Assembly (NCBI GenBank): GCA_949493535.1
Contig: CASZWJ010000001.1
Location: 140,850-204,849, forward strand
Length of the DNA: 64,000 nt
Origin: an uncultured Alphaproteobacteria bacterium
Lineage (GTDB): Bacteria; Pseudomonadota; Alphaproteobacteria; RF32; CAG-239
Reading direction: 5' to 3'
Shown piece by piece: positions 51,357 to 58,590 of the stretch. Under the pieces are notes generated by a model. That model made no database searches. It worked only from the letters and a program-made list of their open reading frames with translations, and was not told the DNA's origin. How positions within the stretch are numbered: position 1 is the first letter of the stretch; every line of letters starts with the position of its first letter. A program made the position numbers and the translations under genes.

Positions 51357-51431
51357 GCGGGCGTAGCTCAGGGGTAGAGCGCAACCTTGCCAAGGTTGAT
51401 GTCGAGGGTTCGAATCCCTTCACCCGCTCCA
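51357..51431 (+). tRNA. tRNA-Gly (anticodon GCC)
   Basis: Cloverleaf: acceptor GCGGGCG / CACCCGC with one C-A mismatch, D-arm GCTC/GAGC, anticodon stem CAACC/GGTTG with loop TTGCCAA, T-arm GAGGG-TTCGAAT-CCCTT, genomically encoded CCA. Confidence 0.85.
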
Positions 51432-51438
51432 ATTCAAA

Positions 51439-51465
51439 GCCACTCATTATGAGTGGTTTTTTTTG
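51439..51465 (+). terminator. rho-independent terminator after tRNA-Gly
   Basis: CCACTC-attat-GAGTGG followed by T8. Confidence 0.7.
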
Positions 51466-51633
51466 TATGGTGAAGGGATGAAACCCTGTCTGGCTCATAG
51501 GCTTCATTGTCGCCAACTCGCTGCGTCACTCGGTTTATAACATTTGTTTCGCGGTGCTGCTGCCGGCTCACAAATTAACAAACGCTCACCTGCCGTTAAA
51601 AACATCTCCGCCGGAGATATTTTTTGCCTCCAG

Positions 51634-51648
51634 CCCGCTCCAATTCAA
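51634..51648 (+). repeat. direct repeat of the tRNA-Gly 3' end (att-like)
   Basis: CCCGCTCCAATTCAA here matches 51424-51438 (the tRNA 3' end plus 7 nt of flank). Preceded by a hairpin plus T-run (51603-51626). Confidence 0.5.
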
Positions 51649-51848
51649 TCCTACTTTTTTATATAAGAAAGTGTTGGCAGGTTTTAGCCTTGGGAAGCCG
51701 GCGGGGCGATTTTTTTGCGTTATGATGTTTGGGCTATGCCTGTGGTTTGAACTTTCGGCAATGGCTTGGAGTATTTATGTTGATTAACTGAAAAGCCTTT
51801 GATTCTTTTATGTGATTTTGCTATTTATAAGATATCGAGGATTCTTTT

Positions 51849-52874
51849 GTGAAGTGGGGAAGCGACATGGAAAATAGCGAACAATTCGATTGGCAAAAAC
51901 TAAAAAAACAAATTGGCATTATACGTCTGAAAATCCGTCGGGGCTTACACCGTTTTGATCAAAAATATAAAATCAGACATAACAGCAAGCGTTTAATTTT
52001 GCTGGCGGCATTGAAGACGATTGCCGCTTTGACTCCAGGAAATGCGGCTCAAGCTCAAGAACTTTCTTTGAAACAAGATAAAAACCAGCATAATACCGAA
52101 CTTCTGGCGATGGCTAAGGTTGCCAATTTGGATGCCAGTGTCATTTGGGAGCGCTTGAATGCCTATATTGACGGACGCCAGAAAGATTTTGCTATGAGCT
52201 TATCTGCCGATTTGGCTGATAATATTGAGACTGTCAAAAACGGTAAGAAAAAAGGGCGTAAGGCGGCGACGTTAAGAGATTTATTCGGTCCGGTCAATAA
52301 TCGTTTTTATTGTTCGATAAGCGGTTTGAAAACAATTGAAGAATTGTCGAAAAGAGAAGGTTATATGGAATATGACTTTCTGTTGAAATGTATTAATAAT
52401 CCGCATTCCTGTCTGAGTGTTATTAATGGTTTGTCAAAATATTACGGTGATGATTGCAAAACATCCGATATTAAAAAGACGCTTGCAGAGCAACAAAAGA
52501 TGAATCCGAACTCAGTGTTTATTGTGTTGATGAATAGCAAAACAAACAGCAGCAGCGGTAAACATTTTGTTATCGTTACGCCGGAATTTGCCGCAGATTC
52601 CGTTGTTTATGTTAATGACAATCCCAAGTTAAAAGTTTATGGCTTTAATTCTGAGGTTATTGCTGATCCGGATACTTATTTTGCCGGGACGAGAAACCGC
52701 GGTCATGTTTATAATTTGACGGAAATGGGGCGCGATAAATTAATTGAACTGTTTTATTCCGGGCATTTAAGCTTGAATCCTCAACAACAAGAAAATGAAC
52801 TTATTCATTTTGAGCCGGTCGGAATGCAGGAAAAACCCCGTCCTTTATCAAAGTCGCGCGGCAGAAGCAGATAA
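51849..52874 (+). CDS. hypothetical protein (341 aa)
   Basis: A 20-nt gap separates it from the downstream dGTPase-like gene. Spaced Cys/His/Asp residues (FYCSISG...GKHFVIV...VYVNDN) are compatible with, but do not prove, a papain-like fold. Confidence 0.45.
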   Translation: MKWGSDMENSEQFDWQKLKKQIGIIRLKIRRGLHRFDQKYKIRHNSKRLILLAALKTIAALTPGNAAQAQELSLKQDKNQHNTELLAMAKVANLDASVIWERLNAYIDGRQKDFAMSLSADLADNIETVKNGKKKGRKAATLRDLFGPVNNRFYCSISGLKTIEELSKREGYMEYDFLLKCINNPHSCLSVINGLSKYYGDDCKTSDIKKTLAEQQKMNPNSVFIVLMNSKTNSSSGKHFVIVTPEFAADSVVYVNDNPKLKVYGFNSEVIADPDTYFAGTRNRGHVYNLTEMGRDKLIELFYSGHLSLNPQQQENELIHFEPVGMQEKPRPLSKSRGRSR

Positions 52875-56759: not shown

Positions 56760-56849
56760 GGAGAGATGGCAGAGTGGTCGAATGCGATTGACTCGAAATC
56801 AGTTGTACTCGTGAGGGTACCCAGGGTTCGAATCCCTGTCTCTCCGCCA
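56760..56849 (+). tRNA. tRNA-Ser (anticodon CGA)
   Basis: 90 nt. Acceptor GGAGAGA / TCTCTCC, anticodon stem ATTGA / TCAGT with loop CTCGAAA, long variable arm, T-arm CAGGG-TTCGAAT-CCCTG, discriminator G and encoded CCA. Confidence 0.85.
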
Positions 56850-56854
56850 TTAAT

Positions 56855-56886
56855 AAAAAACCCCGTCATGTACGGGGCTTTTTATT
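56855..56886 (+). terminator. rho-independent terminator after tRNA-Ser
   Basis: CCCCGT-catgta-ACGGGG followed by CTTTTTATT. Confidence 0.7.
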
Positions 56887-56997
56887 AATGATGAGGGGAG
56901 CTTGATTTGAACCCTGGGAAAAGGGTTCGACAGCAAGCGAGAGCGAGACGGAAGTATCGCGGTCGGCTTTGCCGATGAGCGAAGATGCGGCGAAGCC

Positions 56998-57016
56998 AAT
57001 CCCTGTCTCTCCGCCA
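56998..57016 (+). repeat. 19-bp direct repeat of the tRNA-Ser 3' end (att-like) with duplicated downstream context
   Basis: AATCCCTGTCTCTCCGCCA is identical to 56831-56849. It is followed by a second diverged hairpin (GAAGCCCC.../...GGGTGCTTC) and TTATTGATGAGG, mirroring the sequence after the tRNA. Confidence 0.6.
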
Positions 57017-57180
57017 ATAACAAAAGAAGCCCCATAAGGGTGCTTCTTTTGTTATTGATGAGGTTAAATTCCGGAGAAAGGGCGGCTACAAACAGCAGGT
57101 TGCCGAAAGTCTGCCGGCGGCGTGTACGGCAAGCCGTGCAGTGGTGTTGCCGCCTATCTCTTTCTTTCGCCATTTTGATT

Positions 57181-57212
57181 AAAAAGATGCTTGTTTACAG
57201 CGTCTTTTTTTG
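57181..57212. terminator. bidirectional terminator downstream of the recombinase gene
   Basis: AAAAA, then AGATGC-ttgtttaca-GCGTCT (one G-T pair), then T7. Confidence 0.55.
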
Positions 57213-57259
57213 TGTGTTCGTTAGTAATTCCTGATTTGCGAAGGGCGAAACAGCCGGAA

Positions 57260-57847
57260 TTATCGTTTTAAAAACCGGTGGAGAGTTGACAGGTTAACAT
57301 GGAGATCGTGGGCAATTTTAATTTTCGGTATTTGGTTTGCAATCATGTTTTTTATGATGTTTTCTTTACCCTGCAATTTTGTGGTTTTATTTTTGCTGCC
57401 TTTAGGGCGGCCGATGCTTTTTCCCTCATTGCGCAGGCGTAATAAAGCTTCTTTGGTTCGCGCCGAGATAAGGTTTCTTTCAATTTCGGCACTTAAGCCA
57501 AAGGCAAATGCCAAAACTTTTGACTGGATATCCGCTCCGAGTTTGTAGTTTTCTTTGACAGTCCAGACCTGACAGCCTTGTTCCAGACAGTGGTGCAGGA
57601 TACTCATGATTTGCATCAGGTTTCGGCCTAAGCGTGACAGTTCAGAGGTTATTAAAATGTCATCGGATTTAAGGTTTTTTAATATCTTACCGAGTTTTCT
57701 TTTGTTCAGTTCTTTTGTGGACGATATTGTTTCGATAATCCAGTGATTGATTTTAAGATTATGCAGATTTGCAAATTTTGTTATTTCGAATTTTTGGTTT
57801 TCAGTATTTTGTTTGTCGGTACTTATTCTGATGTAACTATAAATCAT
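57260..57847 (-). CDS. small serine recombinase (resolvase/invertase family)
   Basis: MIYSYIRISTDKQNTENQ (catalytic Ser region), 195 aa, C-terminal HTH IAHDLHVNLSTLHRFLK. SD AAGGAT 8 nt upstream. Confidence 0.85.
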   Translation of the reverse strand: MIYSYIRISTDKQNTENQKFEITKFANLHNLKINHWIIETISSTKELNKRKLGKILKNLKSDDILITSELSRLGRNLMQIMSILHHCLEQGCQVWTVKENYKLGADIQSKVLAFAFGLSAEIERNLISARTKEALLRLRNEGKSIGRPKGSKNKTTKLQGKENIIKNMIANQIPKIKIAHDLHVNLSTLHRFLKR

Positions 57848-57910
57848 TGCTGCTAATCCTTTGTCTTTTTTATTTGATTAGCATTCTACTATTGATTTGT
57901 GTTATTGAAA

Positions 57911-58061
57911 ATAAACGAACGTTTAATTGAATTATAGTTATATTCTAATATTTTGTCAAGCTAATTAATAATCAAGATAAAAACATAAATAAAACAACAT
58001 GTTAGTTTTTTATAAGAATATTCTGGTCTTTTTATGAAACAGGCAAAATAACGTTCGTTAT
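57911..58061. promoter_or_regulatory. inverted-repeat-flanked ~125-bp segment upstream of the recombinase (res-like site or invertible switch candidate)
   Basis: AAACGAACGTTT at 57913-57924 and AACGTTCGTT at 58050-58059 share a 10-bp inverted core. The consensus promoter lies between them. Confidence 0.4.
57931..57959 (-). promoter_or_regulatory. perfect consensus sigma70 promoter reading toward the recombinase gene
   Basis: Minus-strand reads TTGACA (57959-57954), 17 nt, TATAAT (57936-57931). Confidence 0.6.
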
Positions 58062-58132
58062 TTTGCAATGGAGCAGGAAAGCGGGCGTTGGTTAAAGTGA
58101 AATGTATATAATTTTAAGCAAAGGAAAAACAG

Positions 58133-58495
58133 ATGATTTCTTTTATTAAAAACAATATTTTGACTCTTTGCTGTATGACAATAATGATTTTATTGGGTAC
58201 GGCAGACGGTGCTCTCGCTGCCGGAACCTATGATTTGATGGGTACTGCGCAGATGAAAGCTGTTGCTGTATTCAAATCTGTAAAAACGATTATCTTTGTT
58301 GTCGGCGGTTTCGGTTTGGTTGCTTTGGCTTTCATGGCTATTTTCGGCAAACTGGACTGGAAAAAATTCTCAATGCTGGCTGTCGGTTTGGCTATTTTGG
58401 CTGCTGCCGGCGCTATCGTTGACTATGCAACCGGCGATGATGCTGGAGCGGATTTCAGTGATAGTTTTGGGAAAAGTGCACAGTCGTCGATTTAA
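58133..58495 (+). CDS. TrbC/VirB2-like pilin-type small membrane protein
   Basis: Signal peptide ending ALA-AG, then two hydrophobic segments and an acidic tail. 120 aa. The fold guess comes from topology only. Confidence 0.35.
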   Translation: MISFIKNNILTLCCMTIMILLGTADGALAAGTYDLMGTAQMKAVAVFKSVKTIIFVVGGFGLVALAFMAIFGKLDWKKFSMLAVGLAILAAAGAIVDYATGDDAGADFSDSFGKSAQSSI

Positions 58496-58551
58496 AAATG
58501 TTGTTTGATTAAAATTGTATTCAATTTCTCTTTAATATATTTAGCAGCTCG

Positions 58552-58590
58552 GAGCAGCAGGCAACCAGCATTCCTGCTGCTCTTTTGTTT
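58552..58590 (+). terminator. rho-independent terminator after the pilin-like gene
   Basis: Perfect 10-bp stem GAGCAGCAGG / CCTGCTGCTC followed by TTTTGTTT. Confidence 0.75.

Follow-up and report, generated by a model that had tools for sequence, protein, structure and literature searches.

The window, which denotes the whole analyzed stretch of 64 kb, contains an intact tRNA-Ser(CGA) gene on the plus strand at positions 56760..56849 that was called by ARAGORN as tRNA-Ser(cga) and matched by the Rfam tRNA model with 58.1 bits. The last 19 nt of this gene, AATCCCTGTCTCTCCGCCA, corresponding to tRNA positions 58-76, form copy 1 of a plus-strand repeat (56831-56849) and recur exactly as copy 2 at 56998..57016, as an earlier note on this DNA had claimed. 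These were the only two exact matches in the 64 kb (starting at 56831 and 56998), no further copies were detected there with three mismatches allowed, and two matches to the 19-mer were reached in none of 100 shuffles. Both exact copies are followed by a terminator hairpin and a common tail in register over 47 nt, the tails reading TTTTATTAATGATGAGG and TTTTGTTATTGATGAGG (88%). The diverged duplication of the downstream context was thus confirmed, with the correction that the regular expression formerly given for the tail is slightly off for copy 2. The 19-mer represents a tRNA-Ser 3' end that is conserved very widely, occurring in 76 viral contigs and in at least 120 genomes of many phyla, and the exact identity of the two copies is therefore uninformative with respect to the origin of copy 2.

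Terminator 1 (56850..56888, plus strand; terminator scan and fold) consists of a hairpin at 56861-56877 with A-rich and T-rich flanks. It is followed at 56889..56918 by an inverted and diverged repeat of the tRNA 3' end on the minus strand, comprising CCA, acceptor strand and T-arm, and is itself the centre of a palindrome with 47-nt arms (56820-56866 and 56872-56918; 77% complementary), both of which were detected by repeat search. Copy 2 is the 3' tail of unit 1 and leads into terminator 2 (57015..57057, plus strand; repeat search), which is of the type termed X, with 19-nt arms that are 95% complementary. This type stands directly 3' of tRNA-Ser in sister species, and terminator 2 shares 79-87% identity with the first terminators of L113, L215, L216 and L218 (L numbers designate individual loci or strains). 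A 39-bp deletion in strain L004 removes half of copy 2 together with the left arm of terminator 2. The adjoining unit 2 (57055..57172, plus strand) is a diverged or decaying homolog of unit 1, as revealed by full-length pairwise alignment, and the second-best match in the window to the covariance model R1 (10.3 bits, E 0.44). Its alignment to unit 1 identified a decayed repeat copy 3, CTATCTCTTTCTTTCGCCA, at its end (57154-57172, plus strand), which answers the search for a third 19-mer proposed in the earlier note. Terminator 3 (57181..57209, plus strand; terminator scan) is of the Z type and shares 74-79% identity with the Z terminators of L217, L167 and L218 versus 57-60% with terminators 1 and 2 of the window. 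The Z terminator directly follows tRNA-Ser at the empty sites L217 and L167 and precedes variable cargo (Cas9) in L218. The 47-nt inverted repeat, the second unit with its decayed copy and third terminator, the folding of the interval and the architecture behind tRNA-Gly described below are additions to the earlier note. A very weak fourth repeat copy may be located at 58566-58590.

The interval between copies 1 and 2 folds strongly (z = -8.95), and its 148 bp belong, as an intact copy, to a conserved family of non-coding sequences. Unit 1 (56896..57016, plus strand) is composed of an R1-type structured core and the tRNA-derived tail (covariance model R1, 105 bits, E 6e-32). Covariation tests on the plus strand delineated the helices P1 (56904-56907 with 56998-57001), H0 (56909-56915 with 56922-56928), H1 (56943-46 with 56957-60, with a C-GGAA-G cap at 56949-54) and H2 (56963-67 with 56971-75). 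In the family alignment 90.8% of the cells are paired versus 31-48% with the partners slid, nine base pairs are altered on both sides according to the family covariation test, and the covariation score was reached by none of 500 shuffles. Pairing amounts to 100% in H1, 90% in H2 and 76.5% in P1, and nearly all copies have C-GNRA-G as the H1 loop. At the level of sequence comparison, selection on a single-stranded fold is evident from these compensatory changes. Plus-strand RNA is favored over single-stranded DNA as the selected strand by the GNRA cap together with the G-U pairs. Pairing of the acceptor part of the 5' inverted copy with the tail was rejected as a selected feature, since it is seen only in younger units and has decayed in L113 as well as in L207, and no covariation supports a pairing between the H1 loop and the tail. 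The units contain no credible ORF, and no Rfam 15 family matched them at E<=1 in the window and nine further loci.

The tail of each unit matches the local tRNA, reading TCTCTCCGCCA behind tRNA-Ser and GCGCGTACCA or CGCGCCTACCA behind tRNA-Lys, and several species keep the acceptor part of the Lys-type tail even though its T-stem part has changed. The inverted tRNA-end copies of other loci likewise correspond to the tRNA of their own locus, be it Ser, Lys or Gly, and start right after a hairpin terminator. With regard to the criteria used for MITEs, the inverted and direct tRNA-end copies resemble terminal inverted repeats, yet they vary with the host tRNA. No short target-site duplication was seen around the units, and the tRNA-proximal and the distal terminators are not alike in L207, L209 and L211, so that a target-site duplication model was rejected.

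The R1 family extends over at least 12 lineages of uncultured gut and rumen Alphaproteobacteria, all represented by metagenome assemblies, where it was found behind tRNA-Ser(CGA), tRNA-Ser(GGA) and tRNA-Lys(CTT). A search with a core pattern free of tRNA sequence yielded eight distinct real metagenome loci, all of which immediately follow a tRNA or the 3' half of one; L210 and L113 are one contig, and three matches in GC-rich coding DNA were due to chance. L176, L208, L212 and L213, noise matches in such DNA, were discarded as family loci. The first set of units was found with this core-derived pattern, and the invariance of AAAGGGTTCGAC in it is partly an ascertainment effect; loci found independently via flanking proteins also bear units. 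A 35-nt tRNA pattern was too widely conserved across phyla for scanning the genome collection, and among the matches listed only L113, L125, L123, L145 and L167 were useful loci. The R1 model assigned 66-130 bits to the units and had no matches in about 190 other tRNA-Ser or viral loci. A phage attP origin of the repeat was also rejected, since the 76 viral contigs with the 19-mer contain almost exclusively intact tRNA-Ser genes; a search of viral sequences with two core patterns gave no matches. No recombinase or integrase is linked to the units in any locus, and no conserved protein neighbor was found, the cca gene beside tRNA-Lys reflecting simple synteny.

The copy number of the units ranges from zero to two or more and is variable even where the genomes compared encode an identical flanking protein. 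The comparison with related genomes suggested in the earlier note indeed revealed empty sites: L217 is empty versus two units in L216, with an identical nitroreductase in both, and L125 is filled versus the syntenic and empty L145 and L123. L215 bears one unit, and among the tRNA-Lys sites L224-226 are empty, L222 carries one unit and L220 an array. Further arrays were detected in L203, L205, L216 and the window, the latter comprising two units and the third, decayed tRNA-end copy. Decay is confined to distal copies, namely copy 3 of the window and the tails of L215 and L216b, and the Z terminator, which adjoins the tRNA at empty sites, is distal in the window and in L218. The similarity of the cores crosses loci and hosts, whereas the terminator and tail modules follow the tRNA type. 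The cores of L207 and L209, for instance, are about 90% identical versus only 66% for the cca proteins; the cores of the window and L216 are 64% identical versus 81% for the nitroreductases.

A second core family, termed X-type, has an R1-like layout and occurs inside tRNA-Lys arrays as well as behind tRNA-Gly. The plus-strand tRNA-Gly(GCC) gene of the window (51357-51431) is followed at 51432..51655 by a unit-like architecture on the same strand that begins with a terminator. It includes an X-type core (51455-51553), an exact 11-nt inverted copy of the tRNA-Gly T-stem and acceptor (51469-51479) and the tRNA-Gly 3' end with its flank, repeated in direct orientation (51634-51655). The core is homologous to X-type units of L220 and L209 (alignment; nhmmer E 1.6e-16), and such a unit is absent behind the tRNA-Gly of the sister genome L113.

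The reading we favor, with roughly even chances of being correct, is that the 19-nt repeat marks the boundary of a non-coding module of about 170 bp and that miniature, integrase-less insertion modules of this kind stack behind tRNA genes. Each module would comprise a tRNA 3'-end copy extending from position 58 in the T-loop to CCA, the terminator, the diverged inverted copy, H0 built from the T-arm halves, and the core with the GNRA-capped H1 followed by H2, the whole forming a multi-helix junction shut by stem P1. Insertion would take place in the 3' part of a live tRNA gene, the function of which would be kept as the module brings a new 3' end and terminator; the older 3' end would be pushed downstream and be free to decay. 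Arrays may grow and shrink by repeated insertion and by unequal recombination between the direct repeats, and in the window the Z-terminator block would have come first, unit 2 next and unit 1 last. As there is no protein encoded in the modules, they would have to depend on a recombinase or a repair function provided in trans. This reading retains from the earlier att-like interpretation that the repeat marks insertion at a tRNA 3' end, with an identity block starting mid-T-loop at position 58 and empty sites in relatives. Several observations argue against it: the missing linkage to a recombinase in any locus, the failure to see a circular or excised form, the size of a circle of about 170 bp as an unusually small recombination substrate, and the covarying hairpin with its GNRA cap, which is expected of a functional RNA gene and not of passive att-site arms. 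Moreover, because the terminators and tails follow the tRNA type and the core lineages do not, a model in which the element carries everything requires module exchange or gene conversion, and local tandem duplication could also account for arrays such as those of L216 and L220. Repeats of tRNA 3' ends, routinely read as footprints of islands or prophages, can instead mark tiny, gene-less modules of conserved fold that colonize tRNA genes in arrays. If mobile, these would be among the smallest site-specific insertion elements described and wholly reliant on a trans-acting activity.

The putative insertion modules share features with larger elements. The islands at ssrA of Dehalococcoides are arranged in tandem, inserted at a mid-T-loop position and bounded by direct repeats of about 20 bp of the gene 3' end, with a conserved motif directly upstream of each repeat; some of them are without integration genes (PMC3146451). 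The units resemble them in the start of the repeat at position 58, the tandem arrays and the conserved core abutting each repeat. The Dehalococcoides islands, however, are gene-carrying elements of kilobases, many with a large CcrB-like serine integrase, DsiB, and a small PinR-like partner beside attL (PMC3146451), whereas the units are non-coding stretches of about 170 bp with a covarying folded core and an inverted tRNA-end copy, and no large serine recombinase (DsiB module) was found near them. Likewise, cis-mobilizable elements (CIMEs) keep attL and attR in the absence of an integrase, occur in tandem at tRNA 3' ends including that of tRNA-Lys, and newer ones enter the live att site; they are decayed ICEs or IMEs, usually of kilobases and with no conserved internal structure (PMC5704250). 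The units are similarly bounded by tRNA-end copies and carry no integration or transfer genes. Unlike CIMEs, they constitute sequence families with compensatory base-pair evolution in a conserved core, which speaks for their being maintained and not merely decaying; a parent ICE or IME of the units was not found.

A possible, although rather unlikely, alternative is that the units are vertically inherited genes of small structured RNAs, or 3'-trailer RNAs read through from the tRNA promoter. The tRNA-like 3' end, consisting of acceptor strand, CCA and terminator, would then be needed for processing or function, the arrays would arise by unequal crossing-over, and the cores at the tRNA loci of one genome would be homogenized by gene conversion. 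The compensatory changes, the GNRA-capped hairpin and the plus-strand G-U pairs are in agreement with this explanation, as is the fact that every unit ends with its own terminator. The lack of promoter-like conservation and of a linked recombinase fits read-through transcription, the association of tail and terminator, and not of the core, with the locus is what gene conversion would produce, and the acceptor part of the Lys-type tails has been kept in several species despite the changed T-stem part. On the other hand, the unit is wholly missing in sister genomes, even in the presence of an identical flanking protein, strain L004 has suffered the deletion in copy 2 and terminator 2 described above, and distal copies have decayed. 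Strong terminators separate the tRNA promoter from the units, no Rfam family matches them, and cores of about 90% identity in hosts with cca proteins of only 66% identity (L207 and L209) look more like transfer than descent. If the units were RNAs, they would make up a class not described before, their 3' end copying the adjoining tRNA.

It is less probable that the units represent a gene-less, structure- or RNA-guided mini-element, the folded strand of which would target any tRNA gene bearing the T-arm CCAGGGTTCGAATCCCTG. A duplex resembling the T-arm and acceptor part of the tRNA gene might be re-formed by the inverted and direct copies of the tRNA end, or else the 3' tail might serve as a guide or homology arm, and a recruited host enzyme for recombination, repair or tRNA processing would insert the module. 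Folded single strands act as attachment sites in integron attC and CTX phage attP, and TnpB of IS200/IS605 elements uses RNAs with guides derived from the flank. By analogy, a single strand of the unit may fold such that the inverted and direct copies rebuild the target-site duplex, or the conserved scaffold, continued by a 3' segment with the sequence of the local flank, may correspond to a TnpB guide RNA. These are resemblances only; no Xer, IntI, TnpA or TnpB partner was identified, and Rfam gave no match to a known scaffold RNA.

A replication by-product, for which we see slightly less probability still, would result from template switching at the terminator hairpin and the palindromic T-arm, giving a direct-inverted-direct triplication with neither function nor mobility. 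The inverted copy always fits the local tRNA, be it Ser, Lys or Gly, and starts right behind the hairpin terminator, and H0 is the exact junction expected between inverted and direct T-arm copies. Template switching nevertheless leaves unexplained why one conserved non-tRNA core with compensatory evolution is found at the same T-loop position of three tRNAs in at least 12 lineages, and it does not account for the second core family.

The remaining part of the earlier interpretation, according to which the repeats are attL and attR of a decayed or excised classical island made by a nearby serine recombinase, has been largely refuted and is very improbable. In agreement with the earlier note, a Resolvase-domain gene is present downstream; it encodes 195 aa (57260-57847; domain search), with its end 244 bp away and on the opposite strand. 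The deduced protein matches the equivalog model NF009949 of NCBIfam (Mpi-family DNA invertase) with 294 bits at a cut-off of 272 and the CcrB model with 29 bits at a cut-off of 900, and no paralog was detected by tblastn in the window or the loci searched. Inverted repeats at 57904-57923 and 58050-58069 lie beside the gene and flank a promoter scoring 12/12, which was not found in flipped orientation in the five assemblies spanning the segment; the contig of L006 stops at the inner edge of one of the two arms. On sequence grounds, the recombinase is thus probably an Mpi-type promoter invertase and not the maker of the units. It corresponds to Mpi of Bacteroides fragilis (PMC4747536) in the equivalog match and as a small serine recombinase adjoining a promoter between inverted repeats, and differs from it by the alphaproteobacterial genome, the TrbC/VirB2-like neighbor gene and a location outside a capsule locus.

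In favor of an island, the direct repeat of the tRNA 3' end begins in the T-loop, serine recombinases can make such tandem repeats at ssrA in Dehalococcoides (PMC3146451), the recombinase/TrbC block is missing from L215 and L216, and the weak fourth repeat copy may exist. Against it, the invertase is absent from all other unit-bearing loci, and the 148-bp interval is intact, conserved and free of gene cargo, unlike the scar that a decayed or excised island would leave. A genuine island does exist in the clade (L203, L209, L228); its repeat measures 50 nt and starts at the anticodon loop, and it carries kilobases of cargo as well as a P4-type tyrosine integrase. T-loop and anticodon-loop sublocations of islands and prophages that target tRNA genes with tyrosine integrases were reportedly distinguished by Williams in 2002. 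The units share with such classical islands the identity block from a tRNA loop to the 3' end, the restoration of the tRNA by the inserted DNA and the empty sites, whereas they possess neither integrase nor cargo and are two orders of magnitude smaller. Whether mobile elements or RNAs, the units create recombination hot spots beside which cargo for defence and surface variation gathers, including Cas9, a DUF4365-like gene and the Mpi-type switch.

A remnant of a tandemly duplicated, degraded second tRNA-Ser, which the earlier note had considered as a refutation, is hardly credible: copy 2 does provide T-arm halves (AGGGTTCGA and AATCCCTG), acceptor strand and CCA, but ARAGORN found only two tRNAs in the window and no tRNA, pseudo-tRNA or tmRNA at this position, the Rfam tRNA model matched only 56760-56846 at the locus, and the reading is refuted by the sequence between the T-arm halves, which is common to tRNA-Lys units and not tRNA-like. 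A tmRNA, including the two-piece alphaproteobacterial form, was suggested by GGGTTCGAC..GCGAAA, which recalls the tmRNA 5' region, and was rejected because of the lack of ARAGORN calls and of Rfam matches at E<=1 and the Ser- or Lys-type tail. An alanine-type acceptor of a tmRNA (G3-U70, ACCA) was dismissed as well, the GGGGAGC that could provide G3-U70 being present only in the unit of the window. For a hammerhead-like core (GAUGAG...GAAA), the element order and stem complementarity are unfit and Rfam was negative. A small ORF or tag peptide starting from the conserved AUGAGCG is contradicted by varying frames and stop codons and by unit lengths that differ by non-multiples of three. Finally, the units break metagenome assemblies at tRNA genes and give rise to spurious ORF calls; a minus-strand ORF of 107 aa at 56850-57173, which has no Pfam match and is not conserved, appears as a gene call in one assembly.

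The intact tRNA-Ser(CGA) gene was located at positions 56760-56849 by ARAGORN and Rfam, and its last 19 nucleotides, AATCCCTGTCTCTCCGCCA (56831-56849; copy 1), recur exactly at 56998-57016 (copy 2), whereas no further match was detected in the 64-kb window when three mismatches were tolerated. Two matches of the 19-mer were reached in none of 100 shuffled sequences. In identical register, each copy leads into a hairpin terminator, and the tails beyond are similar, so that the exact repeat and the duplicated, diverged terminator context described in an earlier note were both recovered. Few tRNA-Ser 3' ends are known to be as conserved as this 19-mer: among the matches listed it is present in more than 120 genomes of many phyla, as well as in 76 viral contigs, nearly all of which carry it in intact tRNA genes. 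Owing to this wide conservation, its identity alone is uninformative with respect to the origin of copy 2. Moreover, a 47-nt inverted repeat across the first terminator mirrors the tRNA 3' end (56820-56866 and 56872-56918; 77% complementary), and the interval between the copies folds much more strongly than shuffled sequence (z = -8.95). The unit ending in copy 2 (unit 1, 56896-57016) is succeeded, immediately after terminator 2, by a diverged unit 2 (57055-57172), which is alignable to unit 1 lengthwise and terminates in a decayed tRNA end, CTATCTCTTTCTTTCGCCA (57154-57172), next to a third terminator; a third copy, for which the note had proposed a search, is present in this decayed form in the window itself. 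Within the species, six assemblies share this arrangement. In one of them, strain L004 (GCA_964017975.1), 39 bp matching window positions 57009-57047 are deleted between short TCT repeats; terminator 2 has lost its left arm and copy 2 half of its length, and copy 2 is thus dispensable. A 107-aa ORF that spans both units on the minus strand (56850-57173) and is annotated in one assembly (L005) lacks a family match and a frame conserved among relatives and is almost certainly spurious.

The more distant genomes L113 and L125, labelled as uncultured Alphaproteobacteria, contain a second tRNA-end copy 181 and 145 bp downstream, respectively, and their intervening sequences share the core AAAGGGTTCGAC..C.AGCGA.AG. 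A scan of metagenome contigs with this core pattern alone, the tRNA sequence being left out, resulted in eleven loci, including three chance matches in GC-rich coding DNA and one hit (L210) on the contig of L113. In all real loci, the match directly follows a tRNA or the 3' half of one. A covariance model of the unit core (R1) assigned scores of 66-130 bits to the units, which follow tRNA-Lys(CTT) or a close variant in L203, L204, L205, L207, L209 and L211, tRNA-Ser(GGA) in L206 and tRNA-Ser(CGA) in the window, L113 and L125, with tandem pairs in L203 and L205. Nearly all units end with the acceptor 3' strand of their own tRNA, the discriminator base and CCA, followed by a terminator. The T-arm CCAGGGTTCGAATCCCTG is common to all host tRNAs; R1 units are absent at the other tRNAs of the same loci, the T-arms of which differ. 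An R1 search of some 190 further loci, tRNA-Ser and viral, yielded nothing credible, and Rfam provided no family matching the units. With respect to short motifs, AGCGA is repeated three or four times per unit, and the heptamer GCGAAGC (or GCGTAGC) recurs just 5' of the tRNA-derived tail in several units, for example in the window (56991-56997), L205, L203, L215 and L216; this heptamer is known as a DNA mini-hairpin of unusual stability.

An alignment of 11 and later 17 units supported four helices. The hairpin H0 (GAACCCT/AGGGTTC) consists of inverted and direct T-arm halves, while H1 is a 4-bp stem with the variants GGCG/CGCC, GCGA/UCGC, GGCA/UGCC and GCCA/UGGC and a C-GNRA-G loop in nearly all copies. 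The stem H2 includes the variants UCGGC/GCCGA, UCGCC/GGCGA, UAAGCC/GGCUUA and UCAGC/GCUGA, among others, and the closing stem P1 pairs GGAUU with AAUCC, or GGUUG with CAGCC in L211. In the 17 units, 90.8% of the cells are paired, compared with 31-48% when the partners are slid, and both-sided changes occur at nine pairs; the covariation score was attained by none of 500 shuffles. Pairing amounts to 100% in H1, 90% in H2 and 76.5% in P1. The GNRA cap, together with the G-U and tandem G-A pairs, favours the plus strand and RNA, single-stranded DNA being the alternative.

The occupancy of related sites was compared at tRNA-Ser loci anchored on the flanking nitroreductase and at tRNA-Lys loci anchored on cca. 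L215 contains one unit, the decayed tail of which abuts the Ogt gene, and L216 contains two. In L217, the tRNA is directly followed by a terminator of the same type as terminator 3 of the window ("Z"; 57181-57209 in the window) and a DUF4365-like gene (L217 3932-4525), and the nitroreductase proteins of L217 and L216 are exactly identical despite unit numbers of zero and two. One unit precedes the Z terminator and a type II Cas9 gene (L218 4184-6603) in L218. At tRNA-Lys, L222 carries one unit and the site is empty in L224-226, whereas on the minus strand of L220 (1450-2360) R1 alternates with a second core family (X-type), forming an array of two full copies and a partial third that repeats every 420 bp. 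L125 is filled, and L145 and L123 are devoid of the block though the tRNA and the downstream gene are the same. The empty sites sought in relatives are hence represented by L217, L224-226, L145 and L123. The tRNA-Lys T-arm is exactly where contigs L219 and L223 stop, and contig L221 stops within a unit, indicating that the repeats break assemblies. The Z terminator precedes different cargo, namely the DUF4365-like gene in L217, Cas9 in L218 and an invertase block in the window, marking the flank of tRNA-Ser as a hot spot of variable DNA.

Core similarity tracked neither host nor locus. The Ser-CGA core of L113 and L218 is 88-90% identical to the cores at Ser-GGA (L206) and Lys (L207, L209) but merely 70% identical to the window unit at the orthologous locus. 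L207 and L209, both confirmed contigs, share about 90% identity in their cores and 66% in their Cca proteins, while the nitroreductases of the window and L216 are 81% identical and the cores 64%. This mismatch speaks for transfer, or else for highly uneven constraint. We consider it most likely, with belief and doubt in about equal measure, that the units are miniature integrase-less insertion modules that target certain tRNA genes in their 3' part; the main rival, a vertically inherited, tRNA-linked structured RNA, appears rather improbable. Evidence against a simple model in which the element carries everything comes from the terminator and tail modules, which track the tRNA type, so that module exchange or gene conversion between loci must occur.

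The earlier note had read the repeat as an attL/attR signature, suggestive of a decayed or excised island scar or of a tandem att arrangement, and had pointed to a nearby serine recombinase. Such a gene, with a Resolvase domain, is indeed present on the opposite strand and ends 244 bp beyond the repeat. The NCBIfam equivalog for Mpi, a family of master DNA invertases, matches the 195-aa protein with 294 bits (cut-off 272), compared with only 29 bits for CcrB. A perfect TTGACA-17-TATAAT sigma-70 promoter (minus strand, 57931-57959) is enclosed by two inverted repeats (57904-57923 and 58050-58069) a short distance upstream of the gene; this promoter is located between the invertase gene and a gene for a TrbC/VirB2-like membrane protein (58133-58495) and, if flipped, would face the latter. 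The whole segment (57260-58495) looks like a phase-variation switch; in Bacteroides fragilis, capsule promoters are inverted by Mpi (PMC4747536). The flipped orientation was not found in the five assemblies spanning the segment, and a sixth contig, L006, ends at the inner edge of one repeat arm. Since the invertase/TrbC block (about 1.35 kb, 57210-58590) is missing from L215 and L216, in which Ogt follows directly after the units, the recombinase adjoins the repeat but did not cause it. Accordingly, the observation behind the note stands and its integration reading is partly supported: the recombinase drops out as cause, and the interval represents a member of a conserved family rather than a scar. 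A possible, very weak fourth tRNA-end remnant, aligned to the L215 tail, is present by the Ogt stop codon (58566-58590).

Terminator 2 of the window groups with the tRNA-adjacent terminators of L113, L215, L216 and L218, terminator 3 groups with the Z type seen at empty sites, and the decayed copies are consistently the distal ones. A target-site duplication is excluded because in L207, L209 and L211 the tRNA-adjacent terminator is conserved and the distal one unrelated. The Lys-type tail, AATCCyCAAG|CGCG..ACCA, is divided into an element-specific left part and nine or ten final bases that match the local tRNA, which places the junction within the acceptor strand. Every layout of units, empty sites, terminators and decay fits one insertion rule, by which a module of tRNA end, terminator, inverted copy, H0 and core would enter the live tRNA and displace earlier material outward. 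For these modules, the mode of insertion, the enzyme acting in trans and the kind of fold under selection are all inferred.

A literature search for such units revealed nothing equivalent. The two nearest described systems are the ssrA islands of Dehalococcoides, which form tandems bounded by 20-bp 3'-end repeats, insert in the mid T-loop, display a conserved motif before each repeat and in part lack integration genes (PMC3146451), and the CIMEs, which undergo accretion at tRNA genes (PMC5704250). Compared with both, the units are two orders of magnitude smaller and non-coding, and, unlike either, they constitute sequence families with a covarying fold and an inverted target copy.

The other tRNA of the window, tRNA-Gly(GCC), repeats the tRNA-Ser layout (51357-51655): a terminator is followed by an exact 11-nt inverted copy of the T-stem and acceptor (51469-51479), a stretch of about 150 nt unlike the tRNA and, 211 bp downstream, a second direct copy of the 3' end with its flank (51634-51655). 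The middle sequence is homologous to the X-type units that L220 and L209 carry in their tRNA-Lys arrays, and nothing is present behind tRNA-Gly in the sister genome L113. A 341-aa ORF (51849-52874), flanked by the tRNA-Gly unit and the gene for dGTPase, has no Pfam or NCBIfam match and is part of an insertion of about 1.4 kb, since the L113 dGTPase gene lies within about 185 bp of tRNA-Gly. Classical islands of the same clade, by contrast, differ clearly from the units: they encode a P4-type tyrosine integrase and kilobases of cargo and split tRNA-Lys at the anticodon loop, where their 50-nt repeat starts (L203 583-1740, L209 265-1482, L228 2700-2890); the repeats of L228 and L209 are 98% identical, and R1 and X units remain joined to the displaced tRNA-Lys 3' half. 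Among the compared contigs, Rfam additionally identified an STnc490 Hfq-binding RNA (L125 5492-5599; 61.5 bits, gathering score 56) and a SAM-I riboswitch (L204 9137-9222; 56.4 bits, gathering score 44.4), the latter being, to our knowledge, unexpected for Alphaproteobacteria.
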